Part shown: one piece after another, positions 2,229 through 52,444 of the stretch
Numbering within the stretch: position 1 is the first letter of the stretch
How the letters are laid out: each line of letters starts with the position of its first letter
From: Eledone cirrhosa
Taxonomy: Eukaryota
Direction of reading: 5' to 3'
DNA length: 64,000 nucleotides
Assembly: GCA_964016885.1 (NCBI GenBank)
Contig: OZ024742.1
Span: 36,952,001-37,016,000, forward strand
Notes under the pieces: generated by a model
What the model was told of the DNA's origin: nothing
What the model saw: only the letters and a program-made list of their open reading frames with translations
Databases searched by the model: none
Made by a program: the position numbers and the translations under genes

Positions 2229-6195
<3,967 letters not shown>

Positions 6196-6389
6196 GATAA
6201 ATCTACCAAGAGTTTACGGTAGTGTCCAATCCGTATGAAGAACTCAATGTATTCCGGATATCATGGAAAGAAGAGATGTAATGAAAAATCACTTTCGGTG
6301 AAAGATAAACGGTATACAGAGTCAAGATAAAATATTAAACAAATAATGAATAAAACAATGAAACAGTTCCTTATATTAAACAAAAAAAG

Positions 6390-6544
6390 TTCATTATTTA
6401 ACGATCGTTTCTAGGATATATATGTGTTAGAATTGGCATGCATATTCAACAGATCTATGTACAAAATTATACAAAATTATACAAACTATCAAGATTAAAT
6501 ATACATACCAAACACACATATACGCCGTCTTCAGAAATAATGAA
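6390..6544 (-). ncRNA. Type I hammerhead ribozyme with extended stem II (inverted copy)
   Basis: Reverse complement of 17615-17769. Confidence 0.8.
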
Positions 6545-7192
6545 ATATATTTATTGATAATAACAACAATTCAAAATTTCAGGTCCGTTTGGGAACAAAA
6601 TTGACCAATGAAAATACAAAAGGTTTTATGCAGTTTGGCGTGTGTATATACATGTAACTACCCCGTACACATATTTATACAAAGATGTATGCTCAACATG
6701 CATACGCATGCCAAAAAGATGCATGCAAATACAAAATTTCAAGGTTAATGTCTCTGTAAGTTTATAATGCACAGATAAGATGCGTATAGACACATAAATA
6801 TGAAATAAGTGTATACACATATTCTCATACTCACACATATCCGTACACTCACACACACGCGCGCGTATATGCATAAACATACACATAATTACGAACATAC
6901 ATACACACACACACCCCCACACACATATATATATGTGGATATAATATTATCATAAGCACATGGATATTAATTCACTCACATAAACACTGCCACACACATT
7001 TAGATCAAGATACAGAAATTAGGTGGGAGGGGGGGAGAGGTCAGTATTCAACGGTTTGGGCAGACTGCTTATTTATAGATGTATCTATAAACTAAGAAAT
7101 AAAAAATAAAAATTAAAAAGGAAAGAAAAGAAAAAGAAAAAAGAAAAAAGAAATATATCAAGAAAATATATATATATATATATATATACATA

Positions 7193-7274
<82 letters not shown>

Positions 7275-7362
7275 CACACATCTACACTTAGAACACACAT
7301 ACACACACATATATAAACATATACATATACACACATACACACATATACATACATACATATAA

Positions 7363-7395
<33 letters not shown>

Positions 7396-7910
7396 TACAC
7401 ATATAATCACACATACATATATAGACACACATATATATACACATACACGCACATATACATACACATACATACTTATATACATACAGATATACACATACAT
7501 ACCTATATATACGCACAAATACATACAGACATACATACATACATACACACAAATACTTACGCATCCATATATCGGTATATACATACAAACACCACTACAC
7601 TCTCACACAACTCAGACATACAAAGAAAAAGGTATATACCTATACACATATACACATACAAATAGAGATACATATACATATATATATATATATACACATA
7701 TATATATATATATATACATACACATATACACACATATATATACATACACATACATACATGTACTCACACATACATATACATACATACACACATACACACA
7801 TATATATATGGTCATACACACACATACACCTACACGAACATACACATACACATATATAAAGATATATATACACACACACACATACACACACACACATATA
7901 TATAAAATAA

Positions 7911-7965
<55 letters not shown>

Positions 7966-8520
7966 CACATATACATAGACATATATGTACATACATACAC
8001 ATACATACATACATATACACACATATATATATATATATATACACACATAGACACATACATACATACACACACAACATACATACACACACATATATACTCA
8101 TACATAGACATAGATATATATTCATACATACATACGCACTTACATATACTCATATATACAAATACATACGCATCCATATATGCGTATATACATACAAACA
8201 CCACTACACTCTCACACAACTCAGACATACAAAGAAAAAGGTATATACATATACATATATACACACATTAATAGAGATACATATACACATATATATATAT
8301 ATATACACATACATTTATATATATACACCCACACACACATACAACCATAAACACACATACAAACACACACATACACACATATATACATACATATATATAC
8401 ACACACACAAAAAAAAAAAACACACATACACATATATTTTTTTACACATATATATACATATATATACATATACACACCCTCACATATACACACATACACA
8501 TAAGTTATATTATAATAATA

Positions 8521-8557
<37 letters not shown>

Positions 8558-9603
8558 CGAATATAGACATATATACACACATAGATATACATATACATAT
8601 ATATATACACACACACACACACACACTCTCATATATATGTGCGCACACGTACATATATACACATACACACATATACACATAAACATATACATGTGCATAC
8701 ATGTACATACACACATATAGCCACATAGATACGAAGATAGACATATATATAAAGAGACATACATATACATACACATATATATATACACATACATACACAC
8801 ATATATATATATACACACACACATACACGCCCACACACATATACACATATACACATATATATATATATATACATATACACATATATATACACATGCATAT
8901 ATACACATATATATATATATACACACATATATATACACACAATCTTACATTCTTATTTGCATGCGCATATATGTATTTTTATATTCAGATATAAATACCC
9001 AAACATATATACACCTACCTACATATATATTCATACATACACGCTTACAAACACAGATGATAATAGTATGGGGGAAAGGGGGGGGTGGAGAAGGGGATTA
9101 TAGTAAATATATGTTTCAAGAAACATAGAATATTATCTGTATCTGGATCCCAATATATGTTTTTACATAGTTTCAGTGTTAGGAAATACAAGAAATAAGG
9201 CAAAATTATGCATTTCAAAATAAGTATACCATTAATTATATGTTAACTAAACTAAAGATAGTTAACATATTGATTTCTAAGGTGTAAATTAGTTAGGTTT
9301 ATAATATTTGAAGCAGAATTTTGAAGTTAAATAGTAGTAGAGTATTAATTATAGTATAACTAAATTAAAGTTATTAACGTTATGGTATCAATATTAGGAA
9401 ATGAATTTAGTAATAGGGAAAAAACAAATAAAGTATTACATCGGTAGTAGAATATAAATTATAGGTTAACTAAATTAAAAATTATATATTAATTTCTATA
9501 GTATATGTTAATTAGGTATATAATAAATAAAACAGATATTGTATTTTATCAATAGCAGAATATAATTATATGCAAATAGAAATCAAAATTAATACATATA
9601 CAT

Positions 9604-9686
<83 letters not shown>

Positions 9687-10180
9687 TACATACACATACA
9701 TATACATACATACATATACATATTTTTTCAAAAAAATTGCAAAGAATATATTAACTAGGTATACATCCAAAACACATCCCATTCTATGATTACATGACAC
9801 TCTGCAATCCGTCTGTATAAGGATACTAATTTTAAGCCAATTAAATTAAATTTTTAGGTTGACTAAATTTAAAACCAAATTATAAATATATTTCTAAAAT
9901 GTATATTAATTAGGTCTATAATACTAAAAATTATTTCTCTGTCATTGGATACACGATATTTTGTTATATTTTATCTGTAAAGGAATTTTAATAAAAGGTT
10001 TAAATAAATTAAAATTAATCTATAAATTAAATTACTAAGTATATATTAGTAATATTTAAAGGTTTTTCACAATTTATGATTACACAATATTTTATATTCT
10101 CATCTGTAGTAGAATTTTAATTAAATTAAATTTATAGGTTAACTAACATTTAAATTAAATTAATTTCTAAAATAATGTTA

Positions 10181-11250
10181 TTAATTAGGTTTATAATATT
10201 TAAATGTTTTTTTTAGTTTATGATTACACGATATAATTAATTCCTGTCGTTTATTTAATAGGATATCCTTAGATTTCATTATTTCAAATAGTTCTTGGGA
10301 ACATAATCTACATTCATTTCTATTATTTTGATAAGGGGTGGCTCTTTTGAGCACACTCCAGGTCAAATCATATTCTATATTCTTATTTTTATAACTATTG
10401 ATTTTTTCTGCTAGAGATGTTGTATTAGCCAGTGCGGCATTTTTAAAACTATGCTTGTGGGTATTAAATCTTGTCTTAAAATTGTTAGAGGTAGCTCCTA
10501 TATATGAGCAAATAGAATCTTTAGTTTTAACATTACATTTATAGACTATGTTGTTAACAAGACAATTCCCTTTTAATGGGCAGTTTGCTTTGTTTCTACA
10601 GTTACAACCTTTCGTTAATTCTGTATTTGAGGAGATATTATGGTTAATTTGATGTACTGGTGGTATACTTATGGTTTTCTTACATTTATATGCATTATAG
10701 GCACTTATATTTTGTTTTATGTTATTTGTTGTTGAGTATGAGAATTTAACTGTAGACCTATTTAAGATTTGATGGTATTTGTGGTTTGGCGGGAAGTTTT
10801 TCTCTAGGATATAAAAAAATTTTTTAGCAATATTATCCTTAATTTGTAAATTAAATGGAGCATTATACCAAGTAACCCGTCTATTACGGTTTCTATGTTG
10901 TTTATTATTTTTATTATTTTTATAGGTTGTATCGTGATGTTTACTAGGAGGATTAATGTTAATGATCTCACCACAACCATTTTTAGTTATATTTGTAGAT
11001 TTAGGTGTTTTATCTTTTTTATTAGGAGTTTTATTATTAATATTTATTAGAGTTGTATGATGAGTAGTTTTTTGAGAGTTACTATATTTTATATTAGAAG
11101 ATTTGGTATTTTGGGGTATAGTGTGGGTGGCATTTAGGTGTGTACTTTTCATTTGGTGTTTGTTGGTAATATTAGGTTGTATGCTTTTAGTATTTTTAGT
11201 AGAAGGTATATATTCTAATCTATTTTTGTGGCCACTTCTATCTAGAGCTT
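10181..11250 (-). pseudogene. Partial PLE ORF (linker + GIY-YIG endonuclease) in the inverted arm
   Basis: Protein identical to the C-terminal part of ORF 12117-14048 from ALDRSGHK onward; the listed N-terminal MNKTMKQF... is read-through from the junction. Confidence 0.9.
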
Positions 11251-11605
11251 TTGAACTTTTTTTGTTTAATATAAGGAACTGTTTCATTGTTTTATTCATT
11301 ATTTGTTTAATATTTTATCTTGACTCTGTATACCGTTTATCTTTCACCGAAAGTGATTTTTCATTACATCTCTTCTTTCCATGATATCCGGAATACATTG
11401 AGTTCTTCATACGGATTGGACACTACCGTAAACTCTTGGTAGATTTATCTACATAATTTTGCTCCTATTTTCACGGAAATATTCGTATTTTTGTACTGTA
11501 TGTGTGTATTAATTTTATATTTATGTATATACATATATATGTATGATTTTGTAAACCCATATACATTTAGTTGAGCTCTTTCAATTGTCCATCATCCATA
11601 TCACA

Positions 11606-14048
11606 ATGGAAAAACAATATTTGGGAACCTCTTTAAAAAACATACCAATACCTTCTAAGGATGACTTCTTACTCCTTATGATTCAAAAAACTAATAATTT
11701 TATCAGAAGGGTTAGATGGAGAGCCTACCACTTCGATAAAAAATCTAAACAAGCAGATCGGAAATATATGTATGATTTCAATACTTACAAGAATCCACCA
11801 CACAACTTTTTACTTGAAGACTTCGAGAAAGACCTTTTTAATTTAATTAAACACCTCAAATTTAAAAAGTATAAATCCGTCTTTCAAAAGGACCTTGATT
11901 CTACCCTATTGGACCTAAAAAAGTCTAAAAAAATTCATGTCCACTCGGACAAAACTGGTAACTTGTATCATATGGATATTGAACATTATAATGAGTTCAT
12001 ATATAAAGAACTCAGAAAAAATTATAAAAAATCTAATAATGCGTCACTCACCAACATCAACAACAAAACACACAACATAGTAAAAAAAACTAAACATTGA
12101 AGATAGAACTGAACCTTTGGCATTGAAAAGACCACACTTCAACCTGAAGGATCATAAATCAAACTTTAACTCAAATCCTTCTATTAGACTTATATGTCCC
12201 TCCAAATCAGATATTGGAATAATTAGCAAAAAAATTTTGGATAGAGTCATCCCACAAATAAGAAAACACGTTATTTTACCACTCTGGGAAAACACCTCCC
12301 AGGTAATTAACTGGTTTAAAAATATTAGATGTAAATCTTCTGCTTCATTTCTACAATTTGATATAGATAATTACTATTCTTCTATATCACCTATACTCCT
12401 GAACAAAGCATTGATATTTGCTAAAAATAGATCTAACTTAACTTTGGATGACATTAATATTATTACACATGCTAGACTAACACTTATTGAATTTCAGAAT
12501 GAATACTGGACCAGAAACACATATAGTAATCTATTTGATATTACTATGGGTTCAAGCGATTCCGCCCAAATTACTGATCTTGTGGGCCTCTTTCTCCTTT
12601 TCAACATAAATGCCTCCTTTCCCCACCTCAAAGGTGGTTTATATCGTGATGACTGTCTTCTTCTTTCTAACAACCTTAGCCTTTCAGAAATTGAAAAAAA
12701 CAAAAAACATATTAGAACTTTCCTTAAAGACTATTATAATCTTCATATTACTTTTGAAAAAACAAGTAAAGTAGTAAATTTCCTAGATATAACTTTAGAT
12801 TTAGCTACGGGTATCTACCAACCTTACCATAAACCAAACCAAAACTTACATTACATACACTCACAATCTAATCACCCTAAATCTATCCTTAAAAACCTTG
12901 CATATAATATATCACTTAGAATTTCTAACCTTTCTTCTAACCAAGATGTATTTGATAAAAATGCGACCTTCTATAACGAAGCTCTAGATAGAAGTGGCCA
13001 CAAAAATAGATTAGAATATATACCTTCTACTAAAAATACTAAAAGCATACAACCTAATATTACCAACAAACACCAAATGAAAAGTACACACCTAAATGCC
13101 ACCCACACTATACCCCAAAATACCAAATCTTCTAATATAAAATATAGTAACTCTCAAAAAACTACTCATCATACAACTCTAATAAATATTAATAATAAAA
13201 CTCCTAATAAAAAAGATAAAACACCTAAATCTACAAATATAACTAAAAATGGTTGTGGTGAGATCATTAACATTAATCCTCCTAGTAAACATCACGATAC
13301 AACCTATAAAAATAATAAAAATAATAAACAACATAGAAACCGTAATAGACGGGTTACTTGGTATAATGCTCCATTTAATTTACAAATTAAGGATAATATT
13401 GCTAAAAAATTTTTTTATATCCTAGAGAAAAACTTCCCGCCAAACCACAAATACCATCAAATCTTAAATAGGTCTACAGTTAAATTCTCATACTCAACAA
13501 CAAATAACATAAAACAAAATATAAGTGCCTATAATGCATATAAATGTAAGAAAACCATAAGTATACCACCAGTACATCAAATTAACCATAATATCTCCTC
13601 AAATACAGAATTAACGAAAGGTTGTAACTGTAGAAACAAAGCAAACTGCCCATTAAAAGGGAATTGTCTTGTTAACAACATAGTCTATAAATGTAATGTT
13701 AAAACTAAAGATTCTATTTGCTCATATATAGGAGCTACCTCTAACAATTTTAAGACAAGATTTAATACCCACAAGCATAGTTTTAAAAATGCCGCACTGG
13801 CTAATACAACATCTCTAGCAGAAAAAATCAATAGTTATAAAAATAAGAATATAGAATATGATTTGACCTGGAGTGTGCTCAAAAGAGCCACCCCTTATCA
13901 AAATAATAGAAATGAATGTAGATTATGTTCCCAAGAACTATTTGAAATAATGAAATCTAAGGATATCCTATTAAATAAACGACAGGAATTAATTATATCG
14001 TGTAATCATAAACTAAAAAAAACATTTAAATATTATAAACCTAATTAA
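11606..14048 (+). CDS. PLE reverse transcriptase / GIY-YIG endonuclease (~813 aa after removing one A from the A8 run at 12082-12089)
   Basis: SLKNIPIPS N-terminus, LKDHK..RLICP, FDIDNYYSSI, ITMGS, LYRDD, VNFLDITLDL, SNHP, CNCxxxxxCPLxGxC, IVY..YIG..FKTR..H, CRLC; frame-corrected join reads VKKLNIEDRTEPLALKRPHF. Confidence 0.88.
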
Positions 14049-14542
14049 TAACATTATTTTAGAAATTAATTTAATTTAAATGTTAGTTAACCTATAAATT
14101 TAATTTAATTAAAATTCTACTACAGATGAGAATATAAAATATTGTGTAATCATAAATTGTGAAAAACCTTTAAATATTACTAATATATACTTAGTAATTT
14201 AATTTATAGATTAATTTTAATTTATTTAAACCTTTTATTAAAATTCCTTTACAGATAAAATATAACAAAATATCGTGTATCCAATGACAGAGAAATAATT
14301 TTTAGTATTATAGACCTAATTAATATACATTTTAGAAATATATTTATAATTTGGTTTTAAATTTAGTCAACCTAAAAATTTAATTTAATTGGCTTAAAAT
14401 TAGTATCCTTATACAGACGGATTGCAGAGTGTCATGTAATCATAGAATGGGATGTGTTTTGGATGTATACCTAGTTAATATATTCTTTGCAATTTTTTTG
14501 AAAAAATATGTATATGTATGTATGTATATGTATGTGTATGTA

Positions 14543-14607
<65 letters not shown>

Positions 14608-15655
14608 ATGTATATGTATATGTATTAATTTTGATTTCTATTTGCATATAATTATATTCTGCTATTGATAAAATACAATATCTGTTTTATTTATTATATA
14701 CCTAATTAACATATACTATAGAAATTAATATATAATTTTTAATTTAGTTAACCTATAATTTATATTCTACTACCGATGTAATACTTTATTTGTTTTTTCC
14801 CTATTACTAAATTCATTTCCTAATATTGATACCATAACGTTAATAACTTTAATTTAGTTATACTATAATTAATACTCTACTACTATTTAACTTCAAAATT
14901 CTGCTTCAAATATTATAAACCTAACTAATTTACACCTTAGAAATCAATATGTTAACTATCTTTAGTTTAGTTAACATATAATTAATGGTATACTTATTTT
15001 GAAATGCATAATTTTGCCTTATTTCTTGTATTTCCTAACACTGAAACTATGTAAAAACATATATTGGGATCCAGATACAGATAATATTCTATGTTTCTTG
15101 AAACATATATTTACTATAATCCCCTTCTCCAACCCCCCCCCTTTCTTCCATACTATTATCATCTGTGTTTGTAAGCGTGTATGTATGAATATATATGTAG
15201 GTAGGTGTATATATGTTTGGGTATTTATATCTGAATATAAAAATACATATATGCGCATGCAAATAAGAATGTAAGATTGTGTGTATATATATGTGTGTAT
15301 ATATATATATATGTGTATATATGCATGTGTATATATATGTGTATATGTATATATATATATATGTGTATATGTGTATATGTGTGTGGGCGTGTATGTGTGT
15401 GTGTATATATATATATATATATGTGTGTATGTATGTGTATATATATATGTGTATGTATATGTATGTCTCTCTATATATATGTCTATCTTCGTATCTATGT
15501 GGCTATATGTGTGTATGTACATGTATATGTTTATGTGTATATGTGTGTATGTGTATATATGTACGTGTGCGCACATATATATGAGAGTGTGTGTGTGTGT
15601 GTGTGTATATATATATGTATATGTATATCTATGTGTGTATATATGTCTATATTCG

Positions 15656-15702
<47 letters not shown>

Positions 15703-16257
15703 TATTATTATAATATAACTTATGTGTATGTGTGTATATGTGAGGGTGTGTATATGTATATATATGTATATATATGTGTAAAAAAATATATATGTGTATG
15801 TGTGTTTTTTTTTTTTGTGTGTGTGTATATATATGTATGTATATATGTGTGTATGTGTGTGTTTGTATGTGTGTTTATGGTTGTATGTGTGTGTGGGTGT
15901 ATATATATAAATGTATGTGTATATATATATATATATGTGTATATGTATCTCTATTAATGTGTGTATATATGTATATGTATATACCTTTTTCTTTGTATGT
16001 CTGAGTTGTGTGAGAGTGTAGTGGTGTTTGTATGTATATACGCATATATGGATGCGTATGTATTTGTATATATGAGTATATGTAAGTGCGTATGTATGTA
16101 TGAATATATATCTATGTCTATGTATGAGTATATATGTGTGTGTATGTATGTTGTGTGTGTATGTATGTATGTGTCTATGTGTGTATATATATATATATAT
16201 GTGTGTATATGTATGTATGTATGTGTATGTATGTACATATATGTCTATGTATATGTG

Positions 16258-16294
<37 letters not shown>

Positions 16295-16805
16295 TTATTT
16301 TATATATATGTGTGTGTGTGTATGTGTGTGTGTGTATATATATCTTTATATATGTGTATGTGTATGTTCGTGTAGGTGTATGTGTGTGTATGACTATATA
16401 TGTATGTGTGTATGTGTGTATGTATGTATATGTATGTGTGAGTACATGTATGTATGTGTATGTATATATATGTGTGTATATGTGTATGTATATATATATA
16501 TATATATGTGTATATATATATATATATGTATATGTATCTCTATTTGTATGTGTATATGTGTATAGGTATATACCTTTTTCTTTGTATGTCTGAGTTGTGT
16601 GAGAGTGTAGTGGTGTTTGTATGTATATACCGATATATGGATGCGTAAGTATTTGTGTGTATGTATGTATGTCTGTATGTATTTGTGCGTATATATAGGT
16701 ATGTATGTGTATATCTGTATGTATATAAGTATGTATGTGTATGTATATGTGCGTGTATGTGTATATATATGTGTGTCTATATATGTATGTGTGATTATAT
16801 GTGTA

Positions 16806-16838
<33 letters not shown>

Positions 16839-16926
16839 TTATATGTATGTATGTATATGTGTGTATGTGTGTATATGTATATGTTTATATATGTGTGTGT
16901 ATGTGTGTTCTAAGTGTAGATGTGTG

Positions 16927-16970
<44 letters not shown>

Positions 16971-17614
16971 TATGTATATATATATATATATATATATTTT
17001 CTTGATATATTTCTTTTTTCTTTTTTCTTTTTCTTTTCTTTCCTTTTTAATTTTTATTTTTTATTTCTTAGTTTATAGATACATCTATAAATAAGCAGTC
17101 TGCCCAAACCGTTGAATACTGACCTCTCCCCCCCTCCCACCTAATTTCTGTATCTTGATCTAAATGTGTGTGGCAGTGTTTATGTGAGTGAATTAATATC
17201 CATGTGCTTATGATAATATTATATCCACATATATATATGTGTGTGGGGGTGTGTGTATGTATGTTCGTAATTATGAGTATGTTTATGCATATACGCGCGC
17301 GTGTGTGTGAGTGTACGGATATGTGTGAGTATGAGAATATGTGTATACACTTATTTCATATTTATGTGTCTATACGCATCTTATCTGTGCATTATAAACT
17401 TACAGAGACATTAACCTTGAAATTTTGTATTTGCATGCATCTTTTTGGCATGCGTATGCATGTTGAGCATACATCTTTGTATAAATATGTGTACGGGGTA
17501 GTTACATGTATATACACACGCCAAACTGCATAAAACCTTTTGTATTTTCATTGGTCAATTTTGTTCCCAAACGGACCTGAAATTTTGAATTGTTGTTATT
17601 ATCAATAAATATAT

Positions 17615-17769
17615 TTCATTATTTCTGAAGACGGCGTATATGTGTGTTTGGTATGTATATTTAATCTTGATAGTTTGTATAATTTTGTATAATTTTGTAC
17701 ATAGATCTGTTGAATATGCATGCCAATTCTAACACATATATATCCTAGAAACGATCGTTAAATAATGAA
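17615..17769 (+). ncRNA. Type I hammerhead ribozyme, ~116-nt stem II, palindromic stem III; predicted cleavage after 17759
   Basis: Stem I ttcattattt/aaataatgaa (10 bp); core CTGAAGA 17625-17631; long hairpin 17632-17747; GAAA 17748-17751; CGATCG; GUU triplet. Confidence 0.8.
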
Positions 17770-17859
17770 CTTTTTTTGTTTAATATAAGGAACTGTTTCA
17801 TTGTTTTATTCATTATTTGTTTAATATTTTATATGTATATATATATATATATATGTATG

Positions 17860-20276
17860 TGGCCAAAAAGCAGGCTTGGAAAGTATGGCGGGATGGGGGA
17901 AGTAGAGAAGACTATCAAGTGGCCAGGAGGGAAGCTAGGAGACAAGTGTACTTCGCAAGAAGGGAAGCAGAGGAAAGAAAGTTCAAGCATGTTCTACAAC
18001 GTGAGGACCAAAAACGTGAGGTGTTCAGGATTGCCAGGCAATGTGTCAAGGAAAACCGTGATATTGTCGGGGAGAAGTGTGTACTTAACGATGATGGCAT
18101 ACTTGCCATCACCGACGCTGATAAGAAGGTAGCTTGGAAGTGTCACTACGAAAGGCTTCTAAATGAGGAGAACAAATGGGAGAAAGACAGTCTCCCCCAG
18201 ATCGATCCAATAGAGGGACCAGCAGTGTTAGTTGAAGGTAGTATAATAAGTAAGGCAATCAAAGATATGAAGACGGGTAAGGCGGGTGGGCCTTCGGAAA
18301 TAGTTGCTGAGATGCTGAAGGCATCTGGTTCGGTGGGACACACCATGGTCACCCGGATAGTTAACCAAGTCGTACAGAATGGGGTTGTTCCGAAGGAATG
18401 GCGTAGCAGCATCATCGTTAACTGCTATAAGGGAAAAGGAGATGCCCTAGATAGGAGTAACTATAGAGGTATTAAATTAATCGACCAGGTCATGAAGGTC
18501 ACGGAAAAAGTAATAGCGCAACTAATCAGAGAGCGAATTGATCTAGATGAAATGCAGTTCGGGTTTGTGTCAGGAAAAAGTACCACAGACGCTCTTTTCA
18601 TTGTACGACAACTACAGGAGAAGTACCTAGCTAAAAGTAAACCCCTATACTTAGCTTTCGTCGACTTGGAGAAAGCCTTCGACAGAGTCCCCCGTTCCAT
18701 TATCTGGTGGTCTCTTAGAAAACTAGGTGTTGACGAATGGCTTGTGAGAGCTATACAAGCCATGTATAAAGAAACAGTCAGTAAGGTTAGAATTAACAAC
18801 GAATATAGTGAAGAGTTTAGCGTAAAAGTTGGTGTCCATCAGGGCTCTGTTCTTAGCCCCCTACTATTTATTATTGCCCTTCAGGCTATAACAGAGGAGT
18901 TCAAGACCGGCTGCCCATGGGAACTCCTATACGCAGATGATCTAACACTCATAGCTGAATCAATGACCGAACTAGAGAAGAAATTCCAAACGTGGAAGCA
19001 CGGCCTAGAATCAAAAGGCCTTAAAATTAACCTGGCTAAGACTAAAGTTCTAGTTTGTAGGAAAGAAAATAAGGCGGCGGTCCCATCGGGGAAATGGCCA
19101 TGCTCAGTGTGTAGGAAAGGCGTAGGTAGAAACTCCATTTTATGTCCCAAATGCAAAGTATGGGTGCATAAAAGATGTAGTGGGATCACAGGTAAGCTAA
19201 CTAAGAACATAGATTTTACATGTGGCCGGTGCTCTGGTGCAATAAGTAGCAGCAAGTGCTCACAAAATACCAGCTCTTTCAACTGCGCAGAGGGTTCTAT
19301 AGAAATAGTGGACAGCTTCCGTTACCTGGGTGACAAAATCAGCAGTGGGGGAGGGTGCTCTGAAAGTACAGTAGCTAGAGTCAGAACTGGGTGGAAAAAG
19401 TTCAGAGAGCTTATACCACTATTAGCCGCTAAAGGGTTCTCCCTAAAAATGAAAGGCAGGTTGTACGATGCCTGCATACGAACAGCAATGTTGCATGGCA
19501 GTGAGACCTGGGCATTGTGTGCAGAGGATATACGCAGACTAGAGAGAAACGAAGCTTGCATGCTCCGCTGGATGTGTAATAGTAATATACGTGAACGACA
19601 AAGCATAAACGAACTAAGGAAAAAATTAGAAATAAGAGGGATCAGATGTTGTTTACTCGAGAGAAGGCTACGTTGGTATGGTCACGTGATGCGCATGAAG
19701 GACGATAGCTGTATAACAAAGTGCAGGGCAATAAAGATAGACAGTAGCCACGGAATAGGCAGACCCAGAAAACTCCGACCTCACACACTTACACCTCACC
19801 AAGACAATGTCACTGGACCGAGACCTTTGGCGGTACTCAGTAATAGAGAAGACCCGCCTTACCTAAATACAAAGTAAAACCTACTACAGTCAGTAGGCAT
19901 CTCTAACAAAATACACCCCCCGTCCCACTACCCCCACCGCATCCACACCGCCCCCCCCCCCCCCCCCCTTCTATGTAAAGTTATGTTGGTGCCACACCAT
20001 CCAGGCCGAAACAAATGAGATCGTGTAGGTGTCAACTCGACAAAAAAACACACAGTCCACGCTGTAATGTGGCCGTGTAGGCAACACGGTAAAAACCTCC
20101 CAGACCCACACTGTAAATGTGGTTGGTGTTAGGAAGGGCATCCAACTGTAGAAAACCTGCCAGACAGTCCTATGCGAGCAAGACAATCACTCTTGCCTCA
20201 AGTGGGACTACCCCCGTCCAAACCCATGCAAGCGTGGAACACGGACGTTAAACGTTGATGATGATGATGATGATGA
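17860..20276 (+). mobile_element. 5'-truncated RTE LINE (family A) with 3' UTR and (GAT)n tail
   Basis: RT motifs including LLYADDL; a small deletion near 19771 frameshifts the C-terminus; tail gatgatgat ~20257-20276. Confidence 0.95.
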
Positions 20277-20286
20277 TATATATATA

Positions 20287-20658
20287 TAGTAATAATAATA
20301 AAATTGAAGACTAAAATCCAAAGAGGGCTCGATAAGGAAAATATATATCAAATATATAAGAACCGTAGAGCAAATATTTATTGAAATAACAGATTAAAGT
20401 TTAAGCAAAGAATCGCTGCTTTCACCCTTAACGGGATCTTCTGAAACTAACAAAGTCAATCTGTAAACGCAGAACTGGATATTTCAAAAAACGTTGCAAC
20501 CAGAGGAAGACAGGAAGACGATACTTTGGTTCGTGGTAACGTTCGCTGGCAAAGAACGGGAAAAAACGAATATAATACGTCATTAATAGGAGCGGTGAAA
20601 AACAATTACGCGCAAAGACAAAGCCACGTTTATGGTATAAAAGAGGTCGTAGACTAAT
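20287..20658 (-). mobile_element. Family H2 HHR-bearing repeat copy (HHR-like motif 20390-20463)
   Basis: Matches 3281-3560 and shares its terminus agtaataataataaa with 32636; in (TA)n. Confidence 0.7.
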
Positions 20659-20659
20659 G

Positions 20660-20762
<103 letters not shown>

Positions 20763-20785
20763 GTATATATGTATATATATATATG

Positions 20786-20838
<53 letters not shown>

Positions 20839-20939
20839 GTATATATGTATATATATATATGTATATATATATATATGTATATATATGTATATATATATAT
20901 GTATATATATATATGTATATATATATATGTATATATATG

Positions 20940-20976
<37 letters not shown>

Positions 20977-21605
20977 GTATAAATTGAAACAAAATGAAAA
21001 CGAAATTTCATTTCTCACTCTTAGTATGGCACTTACTTAAATGTAAGTATGCATGTATACGTACATACATATATGTATACAGACGTACAGTAGCATGCAC
21101 ATATACATATATATATATATATATATACACATATATATACATATGCATACAGGTACACATACATATATGCACGTATCAGTTTAGCGGCGCTAACGTCGCT
21201 TTGTTCGCTTGTAAACAAACTGAACAGCCTGAATTTATGCCATACGGTGTTAAGGCAACCACGTCACCTTTTTGTTCAACACTGACATGATACGTGCATA
21301 TATGTATGTGTACCTGTATGCATATGTATATATATGTGTATATATATATATATATATATGTATATGTGCATGCTACTGTACGTCTGTATACATATATGTA
21401 TGTACGTATACATGCATACTTACATTTAAGTAAGTGCCATACTAAGAGTGAGAAATGAAATTTCGTTTTCATTTTGTTTCAATTTATCGTTTTCGGTATG
21501 CCTAACCGATTTAACTCACTCAATATGCAAATTAGGCTGCTCAGCCGTTAATTTTCATAAGGAAAGTATATACTTTCGAACGTTCAACTATCTGGCAGAT
21601 GGGTA

Positions 21606-21650
21606 AACGGTGCTGATGATAGCTAACAAGCTTGAAACTAGTACATCGTT
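21606..21650 (+). ncRNA. Minimal type I hammerhead ribozyme, copy 1 (predicted cleavage after 21643)
   Basis: aacggtg CTGATGA t-agct-aaca-agct-t GAAA CTAG TA catcgtt; stem I aacggtg/catcgtt, palindromic ACTAGT stem III, GUA triplet. Confidence 0.88.
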
Positions 21651-22081
21651 CCTGTGTCAGTGTTGAACAAAAAGGTGACGTGGTTGCCTTAACACCGTAT
21701 GGCATAAATTCAGGCTGTTCAGTTTGTTTACAAGCGAACAAAGCGACGTTAGCGCCGCTAAACTGATACGTGCATATATGTATGTGTACCTGTATGCATA
21801 TGTATATATATGTGTATATATATATATATATATATGTATATGTGCATGCTACTGTACGTCTGTATACATATATGTATGTACGTATACATGCATACTTACA
21901 TTTAAGTAAGTGCCATACTAAGAGTGAGAAATGAAATTTCGTTTTCATTTTGTTTCAATTTATCGTTTTCGGTATGCCTAACCGATTTAACTCACTCAAT
22001 ATGCAAATTAGGCTGCTCAGCCGTTAATTTTCATAAGGAAAGTATATACTTTCGAACGTTCAACTATCTGGCAGATGGGTA

Positions 22082-22126
22082 AACGGTGCTGATGATAGCT
22101 AACAAGCTTGAAACTAGTACATCGTT
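22082..22126 (+). ncRNA. Minimal type I hammerhead ribozyme, copy 2
   Basis: Identical to 21606-21650. Confidence 0.88.
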
Positions 22127-22557
22127 CCTGTGTCAGTGTTGAACAAAAAGGTGACGTGGTTGCCTTAACACCGTATGGCATAAATTCAGGCTGTTCAGTT
22201 TGTTTACAAGCGAACAAAGCGACGTTAGCGCCGCTAAACTGATACGTGCATATATGTATGTGTACCTGTATGCATATGTATATATATGTGTATATATATA
22301 TATATATATATGTATATGTGCATGCTACTGTACGTCTGTATACATATATGTATGTACGTATACATGCATACTTACATTTAAGTAAGTGCCATACTAAGAG
22401 TGAGAAATGAAATTTCGTTTTCATTTTGTTTCAATTTATCGTTTTCGGTATGCCTAACCGATTTAACTCACTCAATATGCAAATTAGGCTGCTCAGCCGT
22501 TAATTTTCATAAGGAAAGTATATACTTTCGAACGTTCAACTATCTGGCAGATGGGTA

Positions 22558-22602
22558 AACGGTGCTGATGATAGCTAACAAGCTTGAAACTAGTACATCG
22601 TT
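22558..22602 (+). ncRNA. Minimal type I hammerhead ribozyme, copy 3
   Basis: Identical to 21606-21650. Confidence 0.88.
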
Positions 22603-22866
22603 CCTGTGTCAGTGTTGAACAAAAAGGTGACGTGGTTGCCTTAACACCGTATGGCATAAATTCAGGCTGTTCAGTTTGTTTACAAGCGAACAAAGCGACG
22701 TTAGCGCCGCTAAACTGATACGTGCATATATGTATGTGTACCTGTATGCATATGTATATATATGTGTATATATATATATATATATATGTATATGTGCATG
22801 CTACTGTACGTCTGTATACATATATGTATGTACGTATACATGCATACTTATATATGTATATATATG

Positions 22867-22901
<35 letters not shown>

Positions 22902-22974
22902 GTATATATATATATGTATATATGTATATATATATATGTATATATATATATAACACAAACTTATATATATATGT

Positions 22975-25768
22975 AACACAAACTTTAAAAAACCCAACAA
23001 CCACCTGATCACCTATAGATCAGGGGAGCACTCTAGTCAGTTAGATTTTATCCTCATCAGAGGACGTGACAGATGGACGGTCGTAAACACAAAAGCCTTC
23101 CCTAGTGAGGAATGTACATCCCAACATAGCTTAGTTGTCAGCGACCTCACGGTCAGAACTAGACGAGCCCTGAAACAGAGGCCAACCTGGAGAAGAAAGA
23201 TCTGGAAGCTGAAAGTCCCCTCAACCAGTAACAGATTTAAAGATATTTTACTCAACGCCTACGACAGTAAAGAAGAACAGATAGAGACATTTAACGTAGA
23301 AGAGAACTGGGAGTTCCTAAAAAATAACTTACTAGAGGCGACGGATGAGGTTTGTGGCTGGAGTAAGACCTCAAGCAGGAGGAGAGTGACTTGGTGGTGG
23401 AACAATAAGGTAGATGAAGCAGTCAAGGCCAAGAGACAGGCATGGAAAGAATGGAAGAACGGGGGGAGCAGGGTACATTACATAGAGACCAAGAGGGAAG
23501 CTAGGCGACAAGTATACTTAGCTAGGAGGGAAGCAGAGGATAGAAAATTCAAGCATGTTTTACAACGTGAGGACCAGAAACAGGAGGTATTCAAGATTGC
23601 GAGGCAGTGTGTCAGAGATAGTTGTGATGTCATTGGAGAGAAGTGTATCCGGAATGATAAAGGTGAGCTTGCCCTCACAAGTGCTGAGAAGAAAGATGCA
23701 TGGAAGAGTCATTATGATAGATTACTAAATGAGGAGAATGCATGGGAAGAAGAGACCCTACCCCACGTAGACCCTATAGAGGGACCAGCAGTACAAGTCA
23801 GCGGCAGCGTAGTAAGTAAGGCAATCAGAGATATGAAGATAGGGAAGGCAACCGGTCCATCGGGTATAGCTGCCGAGATGCTGAAGGCATCTGGGTCTGT
23901 AGGTCACACTATAACCACACGTATCGTTAACCAGGTAATACTAGAGGGGGCCATACCAAAAGATTGGTGCAGTAGCATCATTGTCAACTGCTACAAAGGT
24001 AAAGGCGATGCACTAGATAGAGGAAACTATAGAGGTATAAAGTTGATGGACCAGGTCATGAAAGTAACAGAAAGAGTTATAGCACAGCTGATTAGGGACC
24101 GGGTGAATATAGACGAGATGCAATTTGGGTTTGTACCAGGGAAAGGCACCACTGATGCCCTCTTCCTTGTGAGGCAATTACAGGAAAAGTACCTAGCTAA
24201 AAGTAAGCCACTCTACTTGGCATTTGTCGACCTTGAGAAAGCCTTTGACAGAGTTCCACGTGCAGTAATCTGGTGGGCTCTTAGAAAACTAGGAGTAGAT
24301 GAATGGCTTGTGAAAGCGGTACAAGCCATGTATAGGGGAGCAGTCAGCAAAGTTAGGATTGGCAATGAGTATAGCGAGGAATTTAGCGTACAGGTTGGGG
24401 TCCACCAGGGCTCTGTTCTTAGCCCTCTCCTGTTCATCATAGTCCTGCAGGCAATAACGGAGGAGTTTAAGACCGGATGCCCATGGGAACTCCTGTATGC
24501 TGATGACCTCGCACTCATAGCTGAATCTATGGTAGAACTAGAGAATAAATTCCAAACCTGGAAGCAGGGACTAGAGAGAAAGGGCCTCAAAGTCAACATG
24601 ACAAAGACTAAGGTCCTTATAAGTAGACGAGAAAACAGAACCCAGATCCCCTCAGGGAAATGGCCTTGCTCAGTATGTAGGAAAGGTGTAGGTAGGAACT
24701 CCATTCTTTGCCCCAAATGCAAACAATGGGTACACAAGAGATGTAGCGGGATCTCAGGAAGCTTAATTAAGAATGTAGGATTCACATGCAGCAGCTGTGC
24801 TGAAACAGCAAGCAAACAGCCACAGGAAACAAGTACCACCAATCTCTGGGAGGGCCCTGTAGAAACAGTAGACAGCTTCTGCTACCTAGGTGACCGAATT
24901 AGCAACGGAGGTGGGTGCTCAGAAAGTACAATAACTAGGGTAAGAACGGGATGGAAGAAGTTTAGGGAACTACTACCACTGCTAGCTGCAAAAGGCTTCT
25001 CCCTCAGAATGAAAGGCAGACTGTATGATGCGTGTATCCGAACAGCGATGTTGCATGGTAGTGAGACCTGGGCGCTGAAGGTGGAAGACTTACGTAGATT
25101 AGAGAGAAACGAAGCCTGCATGCTCCGATGGATGTGTAACAGTAATATACGTGAACGACAAAGCATAAAGGAATTGAGAGAGAGACTGAGCATAAGAGGA
25201 ATCAAATGCTGCGTGCAGGAGAGGCGGTTACGCTGGTATGGACATGTGATGCGTATGAAGGATGACAGCTGCATAAAAAGGTGCAGAGCACTAGAAGTTG
25301 ATGGAAACCGCGGAGTGGGGAGACCCAAGATGACTTGGGATGAGGTGATAAAAGCCGACCTTACCCAACTACACCTCTCAAAGTCAATGACACACGACCG
25401 TGACTTCTGGCGTCACGCAGTAATACAGGGTACCCGACCTCCTATGGGTACATGCTGAAGCATATAAACAATATGCCCCCCCCCCCCCCCCCCACCGCAA
25501 GGTGGCCGTGGAGGTGCCACGGCAAAAAAAGCACCCAGCCCACACTGTAAAGTGGACGTGTAGGCGCCACGAAAAAGCACCCAGCACTCACTGTAAATGA
25601 GGTTGGTGTTAGGAAGGGCATCCAGCTGTAGAAATCAAGCCAGATCAGTTCCTGTATGAGCAAGGCATGGTCAGCCGACCAGACACTGCCCACAACAGGA
25701 CAACCCGTCTAACCCATGCTAGCGTGGAAGAACGGACGTAAAACGGTGATGATGATGATGATGATGAT
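22975..25768 (+). mobile_element. 5'-truncated RTE LINE (family B) with uninterrupted frame 22975-25458, 3' UTR and (GAT)n tail
   Basis: Frame opens at [25 protein letters not shown] (APE C-terminus) and continues through ORF 23386-25458 with YADD. Confidence 0.95.
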
Positions 25769-33488: not shown

Positions 33489-36267
33489 TTAAAAAACCCG
33501 ACAACCACCTGATCACCTATAGATCAGGGGAGCACTCTAGTCAGTTAGATTTTATCCTCATCAGAGGACGTGACAGATGAACGGTCGTAAACACAAAAGC
33601 CTTCCCTAGTGAGAATGTACATTCCAACATAGCTTAGTTGTCAGCGACCTCACGGTCAGAACTAGATGAACCCGGAAACAGAGGCCAACCTGGAGAAGAA
33701 AGATCTGGAAGCTGAAAGTCCCCTCAACCAGTAACAGATTTAAAGATATTTTACTCAACGCCTACGACAGTAAAGAAGAACAGATAGAGACATTTAACGT
33801 AGAAGAGAACTGGGAGTTCCTAAAAAATAACTTACTAGAGGCGACGGATGAGGTTTGTGGCTGGAGTAAGACCTCAAGCAGGAGGAGAGTGACTTGGTGG
33901 TGGAACAATAAGGTAGATGAAGCAGTCAAGGCCAAGAGACAGGCATGGAAAGAATGGAAGAACGGGGGGAGCAGGGTACATTACATAGAGACCAAGAGGG
34001 AAGCTAGACGACAAGTATACTTAGCTAGGAGGGAAGCAGAGGATAGAAAATTCAAGCATGTTTTACAATGTGAGGACCAGAAACAGGAGGTATTCAAGAT
34101 TGCGAGGCAGTGTGTCAGAGATAGTTGTGATGTCATTGGAGAGAAGTGTATCCGGAATGATAAAGGTGAGCTTGCCCTCACAAGTGCTGAGAAGAAAGAT
34201 GCATGGAAGAGTCATTATGATAGATTACTAAATGAGGAGAATGCATGGGAAGAAGAGACCCTACCCCATGTAGACCCTATAGAGGGACCAGCAGTACAAG
34301 TCAGCGGCAGCGTAGTAAGTAAGGCAATCAGAGATATGAAGATGGGGAAGGCAACCGGTCCATCGGGTATAGCTGCCGAGATGCTGAAGGCATCTGGGTC
34401 TGTAGGTCACACTATAACCACACGTATCGTTAACCAGGTAATACTAGAAGGGGCCATACCAAAAGATTGGTGCAGTAGCATCATTGTCAACTGCTACAAA
34501 GGTAAAGGCGATGCACTAGATAGAGGAAACTATAGAGGTATAAAGTTGATGGACCAGGTCATGAAAGTAACAGAAAGAGTTATAGCACAGCTGATTAGGG
34601 ACCGGGTGAATATAGACGAGATGCAATTTGGGTTTGTACCAGGGAGAGGCACCACTGATGCCCTCTTCCTTGTGAGGCAATTACAGGAAAAGTACCTAGC
34701 TAAAAGTAAGCCACTCTACTTGACATTTGTCGACCTTGAGAAAGCCTTTGACAGAGTTCCACGTGCGGTAATCTGGTGGGCTCTTAGAAAACTAGGAGTA
34801 GATGAATGGCTTGTGAAAGCGGTACAAGCCATGTATAGGGGAGCAGTCAACAAAGTTAGGATTAGCAATGAGTATAGCGAGGAATTTAGCGTACAGGTTG
34901 GGGTCCACCAGGGCTCTGTTCTTAGCCCTCTCCTGTTCATCATAGTCCTGCAGGCAATAACGGAGGAGTTTAAGACCGGATGCCCATGGGAAGTCCTGTA
35001 TGCTGATGACCTCGCACTCATAGCTGAATCTATGGTAGAACTAGAGAATAAATTCCAAACCTAGAAGCAGGGACTAGAGAGAAAGGGCCTCAAAGTCAAC
35101 ATGACAAAGACTAAGGTCCTTGTAAGTAGACGAGAAAACAGAACCCAGATCCCCTCAGGGAAATGGCCTTGCTCAGTATGTAGGAAAGGTGTAGGTAGGA
35201 ACTCCATTCTCTGCCCCAAATGCAAACAATGGGTACACAAGAGATGTAGCGGGATCTCAGGAAGCTTAATTAAGAATGTAGGATTCACGTGCAGCAGCTG
35301 TGCTGAAACAGCAAGCAAACAGCCACAGGAAACAAGTACCACCAATCTCTGGGAGGGCCCTGTAGAAACAGTAGACAGCTTCTGCTACCTAGGTGACCGA
35401 ATTAGCAACGGAGGTGGGTGCTCAGAAAGTAGAATAACTAGGGTAAGAACGGGATGGAAGAAGTTTAGGGAACTACTACCACTGCTAGCTGCAAAAGGCT
35501 TCTCCCTCAGAATGAAAGGCAGACTGTATGATGCGTGTATCCGAACAGCGATGTTGCATGGTAGTGAGACCTGGGCGCTGAAGGTGGAAGACTTACGTAG
35601 ATTAGAGAGAAACGAAGCCTGCATGCTCCGATGGATGTGTAACAGTAATATACGTGAACGACAAAGCATAAAGGAATTGAGAGAGAGACTGAGCATAAGA
35701 GGAATCAAATGCTGCGTGCAGGAGAGGCGGTTACGCTGGTATGGACATGTGATGCGTATGAAGGATGACAGCTGCATAAAAAGGTGCAGAGCACTAGAAG
35801 TTGATGGAAACCGCGGAGTGGGGAGACCCAAAATGACTTGGGATGAGGTGATAAAAGCCGACCTTACCCAACTACACCTCTCAAAGACAATGACACATGA
35901 CCGTGACTTCTGGCGTCATGCAGTAATGCAGGGTACCCGACCTCCCATGGGTACATGCTGAAGCATATAAACAATATGCCCCCACTCCCCCCACCGCAAG
36001 GTGGTCGTGGAGGTGCCACGGCAAAAAAAGCACCCAGCCCACACTGTAAAGTGGACGTGTAGGCGCCACGAAAAAGCACCCAGCACTCACTGTAAATGAG
36101 GTTGGTGTTAGGAAGGGCATCCAGCTGTAGAAATCAAGCCAGATCAGTTCCTGTATGAGCAAGGCATGGTCAGCCGACCAGACACTGCCCACAACAGGAC
36201 AACCCGTCTAACCCATGTTAGCGTGGAAGAACGGACGTAAAACGGTGATGATGATGATGATGATGAT
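33489..36267 (+). mobile_element. 5'-truncated RTE LINE (family B) in the TRIM-like gene intron
   Basis: Near-identical to 22985-25768; stops at 33578 and 35062; (GAT)n tail. Confidence 0.95.
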
Positions 36268-50568: not shown

Positions 50569-51999
50569 TCATTTGTGTTTGTACTTGTGGTTAGTTAAAC
50601 AACCTTTGTACAAGAAAGTTTTACCACATATATCACAGCTGTATGACTTCTCACCTACGTGTGTGCGCTTGTGATAAGCTAAGTTACCACTTAGAGAGAA
50701 TGCTTTACCACAGATACCACAACGGTATGGTTTCACACCTGTGTGTACACGTTTATGATAAAATAAGTTACCACTTTGAGAGAATGTTTTACCACAGATA
50801 TCACAGTGGTATGGTTTGACTCCAGTGTGGACACGTTTGTGAGAAGATAGCTCACAACTTACAGTAAACGTTTTACCACAGATATCACAGCAGTGTGGCT
50901 TATACCCTGTATGTATACGTTTGTGACGAGTTAACACACTACTTGTAGAGAAATATTTACCACAGACATCACAATGGTATGGTTTCTCACCTGTGTGCAT
51001 ACGTCGGTGGTTCGTCAAGTCACCATTTGCAGAAAAAGTTTTACCACAGATATCACAATGGTATGGTTTAATTCCTAAATGTGTCTTTGTATGACTATAT
51101 AAATTACTACTGTTAATGAATGTCTTGCCACAGAATTCACAATGGTATGATTTCTCACCAGTATGTAACCGACTGTGGAAAATTAAACTACTTTTATACG
51201 AGAATGCTTTACTACAGATATCACATGGGTATGGTTTCTCCCCTGTGTGTATCCGTTTGTGCGTAGATAAACTACTGACATAGGAGAATGTTTTACCACA
51301 GATATCACAGCGGTATGGTTTCTCACCAGTATGCACACGTTTGTGACAAGATAGGCCAGAACTTGCAAGAAACGATTTACCACAGACATCACAATGGTGT
51401 GGCCTATCTCCTGTGTGAATACGTCTGTGACGACTTAACAATCCACTTTGAGAGAATGCTTTACCGCAAACATCACAGTGGTATGGTTTCTCTCCCGTGT
51501 GAATACGTTTGTGGCTAGATAAAGAACAATTTGCAGTAAATTCTTTACCACAAATATCACATTGATATGGTTTAACTCCTGAATGTTTTATTTTGTGATT
51601 ATATAAACTACCAGATTGAGCAAATGTTTTACCACAGATATCACAGTGGAAAGGCTCTTCCCCAGTGTGAATACGTTTGTGAGAAGATAATGAGCTGCTG
51701 ATAGTGAAGGTTTTACCACAGATATCACAATGAAATGGTTTAACTTCTGCATGTTTCCTTTTATGACTATATAAATTACTATTCTTCGAGAATGTTTTAC
51801 CACAGATGTCACAATGGTATGGTTTCTCACCTGTATGAGTACGTTTGTGATCAATAAGGTGGTTATTTTGTTGGAAAGTCTTACCACAGATGTCACAGTG
51901 GTATGGTCTTTTCTTTGCACGTCTCTGTGTTTGATGAGATAAGGCAATAGTTTTACACTTACTCTTACCCTCATTCTCACACACCTCCCCTTCTTCCAT
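50569..51999 (-). CDS. C2H2 zinc-finger protein, 16 tandem fingers, 476 aa, single coding exon
   Basis: 16 CxxC-x12-HxxxH units with TGEKPY-type linkers; candidate splice acceptor tctttatttCAG upstream (exon start 52207). Confidence 0.93.
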   Translation of the reverse strand: MEEGEVCENEGKSKCKTIALSHQTQRRAKKRPYHCDICGKTFQQNNHLIDHKRTHTGEKPYHCDICGKTFSKNSNLYSHKRKHAEVKPFHCDICGKTFTISSSLSSHKRIHTGEEPFHCDICGKTFAQSGSLYNHKIKHSGVKPYQCDICGKEFTANCSLSSHKRIHTGEKPYHCDVCGKAFSQSGLLSRHRRIHTGDRPHHCDVCGKSFLASSGLSCHKRVHTGEKPYRCDICGKTFSYVSSLSTHKRIHTGEKPYPCDICSKAFSYKSSLIFHSRLHTGEKSYHCEFCGKTFINSSNLYSHTKTHLGIKPYHCDICGKTFSANGDLTNHRRMHTGEKPYHCDVCGKYFSTSSVLTRHKRIHTGYKPHCCDICGKTFTVSCELSSHKRVHTGVKPYHCDICGKTFSQSGNLFYHKRVHTGVKPYRCGICGKAFSLSGNLAYHKRTHVGEKSYSCDICGKTFLYKGCLTNHKYKHK

Positions 52000-52444
52000 A
52001 TCAAACCTTATTCACAATATACAAATTATTTCTGTATCACAACAATGAAATATATTTCAAATTAATCTGAAGTCAGGAAATATTTCACAGTTATTTAAAC
52101 AAAATGACATGTATTTAGTAACAATGTCATTCTTTAGTCCTTAGGATGTGAGAAATTTCTTGCTGTATCTTGGCTCAGAAATTCATGTCTCAATATCACC
52201 AGATGTCCTGAAATAAAGACAATATAAGATATAAAGATAATAAAATGTCAATATGGTGATTATTAAAAAGATTTCTTTACCATATGAAAGACACTGCATA
52301 TCATTTTCAAATAATCAGGAAAATAGAGGGATTTCATAACATAACTAATTTTCTAATTCTTAAGTTGGTGTTTGGAACATAAAACTATGATGGAAGGCTT
52401 TACTCCTTTTATTGTTATATTTGAGGAGGTCATATCTGTTTTAA

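Follow-up and report, generated by a model that had tools for sequence, protein, structure and literature searches.

A long-armed type I hammerhead motif in a Penelope-like element of Eledone cirrhosa, likely part of a capped and mostly uncut RNA leader

A Penelope-like element (PLE) in the genome of Eledone cirrhosa carries a type I hammerhead motif with a 116-nt stem II, and this motif likely makes up the capped 5′ leader of the RNA, remaining mostly uncut until it is activated by palindrome pairing or protein remodeling. The motif lies at 17615..17769 (+) of the 64,000-nt stretch of contig OZ024742.1 that we analyzed, hereafter the window, and copies of it across the genome almost certainly make up a conserved lineage of long-armed hammerheads, as judged from sequence comparison. 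A ribozyme in this position is likely to be a seldom-fired switch at the RNA start rather than a constant cutter.

All parts of the motif are found at the positions given in an earlier note on this DNA. Stem I is indeed 10 bp long (17615..17624 paired with 17760..17769), and the two halves of the catalytic core, CUGAAGA (C3-A9, 17625..17631) and the GAAA at 17748, are separated by 116 nt as the note had claimed. The segment 17748..17759 consists of G12-A15.1, a stem III that is the palindrome noted earlier (2 bp in a monomer and 8 bp in a dimer), U16.1, and U17. H17 is thus U17759, the triplet is GUU, and the predicted cut follows 17759. The intervening arm spans 17632..17747, and the region folds into the long hairpin that had been proposed, at −50.1 kcal/mol (z = −5.6), with 0/200 shuffles equally good. 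However, the register first given for stem II was off by two bases. Comparison of the families described below sets the pairing from 17636:17743 onward, above a base composed of C·A, G·U, G-C, and C·C. Farther out, a tip module (17669..17707) comprises 3 bp, a 4x3 internal loop, 4 bp, and an apical loop of 18 nt. Downstream, 17760..17832 leads from the predicted cut to the nearer of the element's two 3′ ends (+73), after which (TA)n follows. These features are all on the + strand; an identical second copy of the hammerhead, in inverted orientation, occupies 6390..6544 (−).

As for detection, a hammerhead descriptor with the spacer allowed to 250 nt matched the long motif in the 64-kb window, three short hammerheads, and, at 6534, the identical copy in inverted orientation, and it returned zero matches in 40 locally dinucleotide-shuffled windows. 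The expectation that standard searches could miss such a motif holds for published descriptors, which use 7-17-nt spacers. Rfam covariance models gave no hammerhead match with E values up to 1 within positions 12000-24000 and, at the gathering score, no hammerhead match, long or short, anywhere in the window. Since Rfam also misses the three short hammerheads, its miss of the long motif is not due to arm length alone.

The motif fits the structure of a type I hammerhead apart from a noncanonical junction, and cleavage is predicted from its sequence. There are three helices with the ends in helix I, stem I shows two-sided changes and stem II covaries, and the core reads CUGANGA ... GAAA ... UH with a 3:8 pair that is either C-G or U-A. 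The canonical G10.1-C11.1 closing pair is absent, C·A being found in 148/148 copies, where both letters served as extraction anchors. This pair is not strictly defining, U·U being common in Hydra hammerheads and C·A being present in PLE-X1_cBra; U·U at the base of stem II occurs naturally (PMC3088659). We identified no tertiary contact between loop II and stem I, the apical loop being variable and distant from the core; a loop-stem contact is usually missing in PLE hammerheads. The C·A junction and the GUU triplet could reduce activity.

The host element confirms that this is a Penelope hammerhead, as had been suggested, since the motif sits in the pseudo-LTR (pLTR) of a Hydra-clade PLE. The sense copy (11252..17832, +) has its 5′ junction 6 nt downstream of the predicted cut and encodes a reverse transcriptase (RT) with a GIY-YIG endonuclease (EN) (11606..14048, +) 3.6 kb upstream of the motif. 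This ORF is frameshifted in the window at an A8 run (12082-12089), which is A7 in 21/24 other stretches, and the frame is open for >800 aa in 11/20 other copies of the PLE. It is preceded in the 5′ UTR by a candidate 73-nt GT-AG intron (11498..11570, +), which contains four upstream ATGs and is about as long as the 75-bp intron found in Drosophila Penelope, and it is followed by a microsatellite-rich 3′ UTR of ~3.6 kb (14049..17614, +). An inverted 5′-truncated copy (6190..11250, −) ends at the far 3′ end (+210, tail), in (TA)n. As the PLE moves, it copies these ~3.6 kb of AT/GT microsatellite-rich sequence (14049-17600) along with itself, which may seed microsatellites genome-wide.

The element was assigned to the Hydra clade by protein motifs only, against the description in PMC8557442: a C-terminal GIY-YIG, an RWK-like motif (RWR here), DKT, CxCX5C, and CxxC plus CxH near the EN end. 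It also shares the (TA)n targets, pLTR tandems, inverted 5′-truncated copy, and tail of that clade. Its tandem spacing of 6.5-6.9 kb, which is explained by the 3.6-kb microsatellite-rich 3′ UTR, departs from the "<3 kb" given for Hydra elements, but that size is a tendency and not a defining trait (PMC8557442). Searches returned 1354 protein homologs, the named ones including two molluscs. A Naiad PLE was rejected because the endonuclease is C-terminal here and N-terminal in Naiad.

The window holds several other features. The adjoining RT ORF at 17784-19877 was rejected as a Penelope partner because it belongs to an RTE-like LINE with a PHD finger; RTE-like ORFs of this kind, with the PHD finger directly after the RT domain, also occur at 22954-25458 and 33670-35961. 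A multi-C2H2 zinc-finger ORF of 480 aa is located at 50569-52011 (−). A 476-nt tandem repeat (20979-22773; three units and an inverted partial) bears short Hydra-type hammerheads at 21613, 22089, and 22565, each with a 14-nt spacer and a U·U junction. This array is retrozyme-like or pLTR-derived, and its sequence is unrelated to the long-armed family.

The motif is abundant. Three mutually exclusive 3′-core patterns matched 6444, 5390, and 3581 sites, a sum of 15,415 genome-wide, while a pattern for one family (C, below) matched 1289 and an ORF-start pattern 472. All 40/40 scored matches to a 211-nt query were 100% identical (two were the window's own copies), which indicates that the family is young. 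Low-depth matches to parts of the hammerhead were also seen in DNA contigs of two other organisms (X9 and X10).

We pulled out 148 distinct copies and sorted them into families A-D (85, 31, 28, and 4 copies). Family A has a GUU triplet, family B a GUA, and family C a U3-A8 core. The copies were chosen by core-containing patterns, so the invariance of anchored letters is partly by construction; family C was initially detected via its 3′ half. Family C is tied to a related ORF (60-83% identity), while no ORF link was found for family D. The span between the core halves is 90-126 nt in all 148 copies, within an extraction range of about 70-135 nt that shorter arms would escape. One further copy (L121, +, ~1503) combines a U3-A8 core with a different, longer arm, GAAA not being found within the scanned range; it is possibly another family or a rearranged copy.

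Covariation across the four families supports the earlier proposal of an expanded ribozyme architecture and shows stem II to be conserved. Counted in register outward from the junction, pairs 5-11 of stem II form in 0.95-0.99 of cells. Out of register, pairing drops to 0.15-0.31 in family C and 0.39-0.54 in family D, whereas a two-base slide in families A and B still pairs 0.68-0.87 because their helix is a TA repeat. Pairs 5, 6, 7, 9, 10, and 11 differ in base-pair identity between families: pair 5 is A-U, U-A, or G-C, pair 6 is U-A or G-C, and pair 10 is U-A, A-U, or G-C. Because the four families are related, the covariation represents few independent events. RNAalifold on a MAFFT alignment recovered stems I and III and not stem II, since the arm misaligns, and stem II was tested instead by these junction-anchored pair counts. 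In stem I, pairs 1-7 are formed in 0.86-1.00 of copies in the three larger families, and two pairs have changed on both sides in family C. In the core, the 3:8 pair is kept as C-G in three families and as U-A in family C (C3-G8 to U3-A8), a known natural hammerhead core variant. Across the families stem II begins with C·A, R·Y, G-C, and C·Y, and the stem III palindrome is common to all four. Position H17 holds U or A in all of the 148 copies except for a single C, and never G.

The tip module is present in all four families, with strict-pattern matches in 78+2/85 copies of family A, 20/31 of B, 21/28 of C, and 3/4 of D. Along the 5′ arm, its distance from the junction is nearly constant (33-45 nt). 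The module is best taken as a candidate protein site, at about even odds. Stem II is very stable in the window's family (z −5.9 to −8.1 in 6 copies) and modestly so in family C (z +0.6 to −2.8).

The length of the arm sets this motif apart from its relatives. Among 77 examined metagenome loci, from the best 80 of 491 with related proteins, 56 contained 65 hammerhead matches, of which 64 have spacers of 10-25 nt, in keeping with the earlier statement that PLE hammerheads usually have a short stem II. The lone long match (L343, 64 nt) is probably due to chance; a single long match likewise turned up when the loci were shuffled three times. Another of these relatives (L327:2400) has an independent U3-A8 core with an 11-nt spacer. 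In the published table, Hydra hammerhead spacers are about 12-26 nt, and the longest entries, ~50 nt, belong to plant PLE-X elements; the published searches used 7-17-nt spacers and remarked on half-cores 35-50 nt apart (PMC8557442). In literature searches that did not extend to Repbase/Dfam or the bulk of the subscription literature, no PLE hammerhead turned up whose stem II approaches 100 nt, nor did the conserved tip module or the coincidence of a ribozyme with a likely capped start.

In most other respects the motif resembles known hammerheads. Like those of Hydra-clade PLEs as described in PMC8557442, it is of type I, sits in the 3′ pLTR, has a mismatch where stem II begins (usually U·U in those elements), a tiny stem III, both GUU and GUA triplets, (TA)n targets, and the same host protein motifs. 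It differs in its span (90-126 nt vs. ~12-26 nt), in its conserved tip module, and in a unit of about 6.5-6.9 kb against element sizes under about 3 kb. The spike-moss elements PLE-X1_sMoe and PLE-X1_sTam also have a longer stem II region (~50 nt), and PLE-X1_cBra has C·A opposed at the base of stem II (PMC8557442 File S2). However, these three arms are about half the length and mainly loop, they belong to EN-less plant elements, and the tip module does not appear in that table. Minimal dimer-type PLE hammerheads (PMC4209133; also treated in the review PMC6765202) share the short palindromic helix III, the low monomer activity, the natural U3-A8 variant, and the pLTR location, but the helix II described there as "larger than usual" has 7-8 bp and a G10.1-C11.1 pair, vs. 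~45 bp and C·A here. The Clec2 and ASBVd hammerheads also join core halves across a long stretch, ASBVd being of type I, dimer-acting, and with helices I/II not clearly delimited; in contrast, Clec2 is of type III with a helix I insertion of 150-1500 nt, and ASBVd is a viroid and not a retroelement (PMC6155905).

The arm could nevertheless be a tolerated insertion in an ordinary dimer-type PLE hammerhead, paired just to hold the core halves together. This would agree with the mid-arm sequence turning over between families, with indels, with an apical loop ranging from 3 to 18 nt, with the TA repeat that makes up part of the arm in the window's family, and with the spread of relatives bearing 10-25-nt arms. 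However, the tip module keeps its sequence, including unpaired bases, and its near-constant distance from the core in four families although the flanking helix has been replaced. Moreover, a neutral arm would be expected to shorten, and 148/148 copies span 90-126 nt within the extraction range of about 70-135 nt. We therefore consider a neutral arm unlikely. Of the roles that the earlier note had suggested for the arm, protein binding and regulation of cleavage are consistent with a tip loop at fixed distance and with a predicted core-sequestering fold (below), whereas that of a small-RNA substrate fares poorly. While the hairpin is long, stable, and imperfect (the z values of −5.9 to −8.1 in 6 copies), as a Drosha/Dicer substrate giving small RNAs would be, only the tip is kept and arm sequences differ between families, Rfam has no match at its gathering score, and the miRNA-family matches in the window are microsatellites elsewhere than the arm. 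This makes a small-RNA precursor highly improbable.

The insertion record suggests that the motif may lie at the very start of a transcript. We express junctions relative to the predicted cut (17760 = 0), so that −142 is 17618, the first base of a 7-bp stem I: an RNA beginning there would keep just 17618-17624 of the 5′ strand. One hundred pLTR arms were sampled by a pattern downstream of the cut and 400 nt of each were examined, the arms of one insertion not being independent. At their 3′ ends, 56 stop at +70 to +75 and 43 at +206 to +212, and back-to-back insertion pairs typically have one +73 and one +210 end. At their 5′ ends, 42 begin at −146 to −134 (20 exactly at −142), 4 at 0 to +15, and 21 beyond the 400 nt. 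Genome-wide junction patterns show the same hotspot, with 1730 at −142, 340 at −141, and 134 at −143, totals that are not strictly comparable since the three patterns exclude different letters; A/T microhomology with (TA)n also inflates part of the −142 count. A G precedes the junction in 29, 5, and 6 of the first 100 listed at −142, −141, and −143, respectively (hand count), and the excess is significant when G is set against T (p = 2.6e-11), although 3/11 G rows among the first 30 may derive from the partner arm. In L1, such an additional G is the hallmark of capped full-length insertions (PMC11702581). This pile-up at 17618, often with an extra G, suggests that a capped transcript starts there, which we consider quite probable. 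The sequence at 17618 resembles the arthropod cap-site pentamer. In contrast, among 30 ORF-bearing copies (about 23 independent places), 21/30 pass −142 and 0/30 start at it, and the capped start is therefore visible in short copies only. Two insertions (L251/L252 and L255/L256, junction ~1500) have two or three re-copied 12-13-nt units from the putative RNA 5′ end, each following a G, as if the RT had switched templates at a cap. Two further clusters of junctions, at −198 and −112, were rejected as ends and read as alignment breaks at subfamily indels.

Few ends fall at the predicted cut. Only 4/100 sampled arms begin at or after it, and 33 junctions genome-wide lie exactly there by a two-mismatch pattern; 12/30 viewed joints at the cut are stem I fold-backs. 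In L282, L283, L287, and nine others (~1500), arms are joined via complementarity of both stem I strands. No ORF-bearing copy (0/30) starts within 9 nt of the cut. This scarcity indicates that the templates of short copies are mostly uncut, and since ORF-bearing copies pass −142, their templates would be longer than one unit. Read-through tandems or circles have been proposed as such templates (PMC4209133). Two candidate footprints were rejected: the window's sense copy starting at +6, which the 30 ORF-bearing copies and the 100 pLTR arms did not support, and double cleavage from paired near-cut arm starts, because arm starts are correlated in palindromic insertions generally. The ability of the motif to cleave is itself predicted, and we hold it to be rather likely.

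Folding predictions are compatible with this restraint. In the monomer, the structure of lowest energy is not the hammerhead, which costs +3.5 to +10.7 kcal/mol over the ensemble in 8/8 natural RNAs, and for the window's RNA 9.5 kcal/mol from the 17618 start and 6.3 in a read-through context. In a competing fold, stem II is prolonged across the core; the helix concerned has mean probabilities of 0.71, 0.54, 0.13, and 0.54 in families A-D, this core-sequestering off-fold being weak in family C (0.13 vs. 0.54-0.71). A palindrome duplex between two motifs is predicted at −10 to −13.8 kcal/mol. Such a costly monomer fold together with a palindrome duplex is compatible with a ribozyme that stays off unless a dimer partner or a protein switches it on, and dimer- or protein-switched cleavage has been reported for other PLE hammerheads (PMC4209133 and PMC11167929).

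The hotspot at −142 could arise in ways other than a capped start, the main rival being a cut at ATT by the element's endonuclease; an RT stop or fold-back at stem I is another. The endonuclease of an anole PLE favors 5′-ATT-3′ in its own pLTR (PMC11167929), and the −142 hotspot starts with ATT; the 12/30 fold-back joints and the 0/30 ORF-bearing copies starting at −142 point in the same direction. However, an endonuclease cut or RT stop predicts no extra G at a single position (29 vs. 5 and 6 per 100), and the re-copying of the first 12-13 bases in two insertions, with a G ahead of each repeat, is as expected at a template end. These origins of the hotspot are therefore rather improbable. A broader objection is that the motif has no useful cleavage, its core and palindrome being an RNA dimerization/RT-recognition signal for two-template insertion, or a promoter. 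Mostly uncut templates and the joining of a +73 end with a +210 end in back-to-back insertions would suit this explanation, and catalytic mutants left insertion by the anole PLE unaffected in vitro (PMC11167929). Nevertheless, the compensatory C3-G8 to U3-A8 change retains a pair important to catalysis at the active site, and none of the 148 copies has G at H17 (all have U or A apart from one C), which makes the absence of useful cleavage very unlikely.

We therefore return to the capped, mostly uncut leader. Transcription would begin at 17618, the extra G being the copied cap, and the monomer would fold as an inactive rod with stem II extended over the core. RT would start from internal priming sites, +73 and +210, on two RNAs; where the RNA is capped and uncut, it would copy back as far as the cap, yielding short back-to-back insertions. 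The internal loop near the arm tip would serve as a protein-binding site at a fixed distance from the active site. Cleavage, when it occurs, would remove the cap, hairpin, and four upstream AUGs, or open tandem transcripts; in RNA viruses, self-cleavage can make cap-independent translation possible (PMC13725137). The scheme is reminiscent of the anole Poseidon PLE PAc (PMC11167929), in which two internal RT starts define the tail, the hammerhead lies just upstream, the main template is uncut RNA, and cleavage is modeled as protein-assisted. PAc differs in its short stem II, which overlaps the ORF start, and in its tail (30-40 nt vs. 137 nt here), and no cap-adjacent start is described in the excerpts of that paper.

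A more speculative extension, which we put forward tentatively and think doubtful, is that the long-armed ribozyme decides the fate of Penelope RNA as a switch, off beside the cap and on in read-through RNA. The cap-adjacent motif, with only a 7-bp A-U stem I, would stay off, and the capped RNA would be primed internally to give thousands of short back-to-back copies. Read-through RNA would have a longer stem I, and palindrome pairing together with RT at the arm tip would switch the ribozyme on, cutting tandem transcripts into units able to circularize and to template longer-than-unit copies; removal of the capped hairpin would allow translation. Such a switch would explain why 42/100 arms start at the ribozyme's first bases vs. 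0/30 ORF-bearing copies.

Together, these findings describe a motif that works like a dimer-type PLE hammerhead: the class is known, and the novelty lies in the arm length, the tip module, and the likely coincidence with a capped start. The range of stem II lengths known from PLE hammerheads is extended from about 10-50 nt to >100 nt, and searches with short-spacer descriptors consequently undercount such ribozymes. The reported absence of canonical hammerheads from Naiads, where split half-cores were noted (PMC8557442), thus deserves a re-search. If the arm is neutral, the finding is a size record only; if a protein-docking arm does decide whether a capped leader is removed, it would interest RNA engineers. 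The role of hammerheads in EN-bearing PLEs has been stated to be unclear (PMC8557442), and the long-armed family is a strong test case, since thousands of young insertions record RNA starts and RT priming sites and four families show which bases matter.
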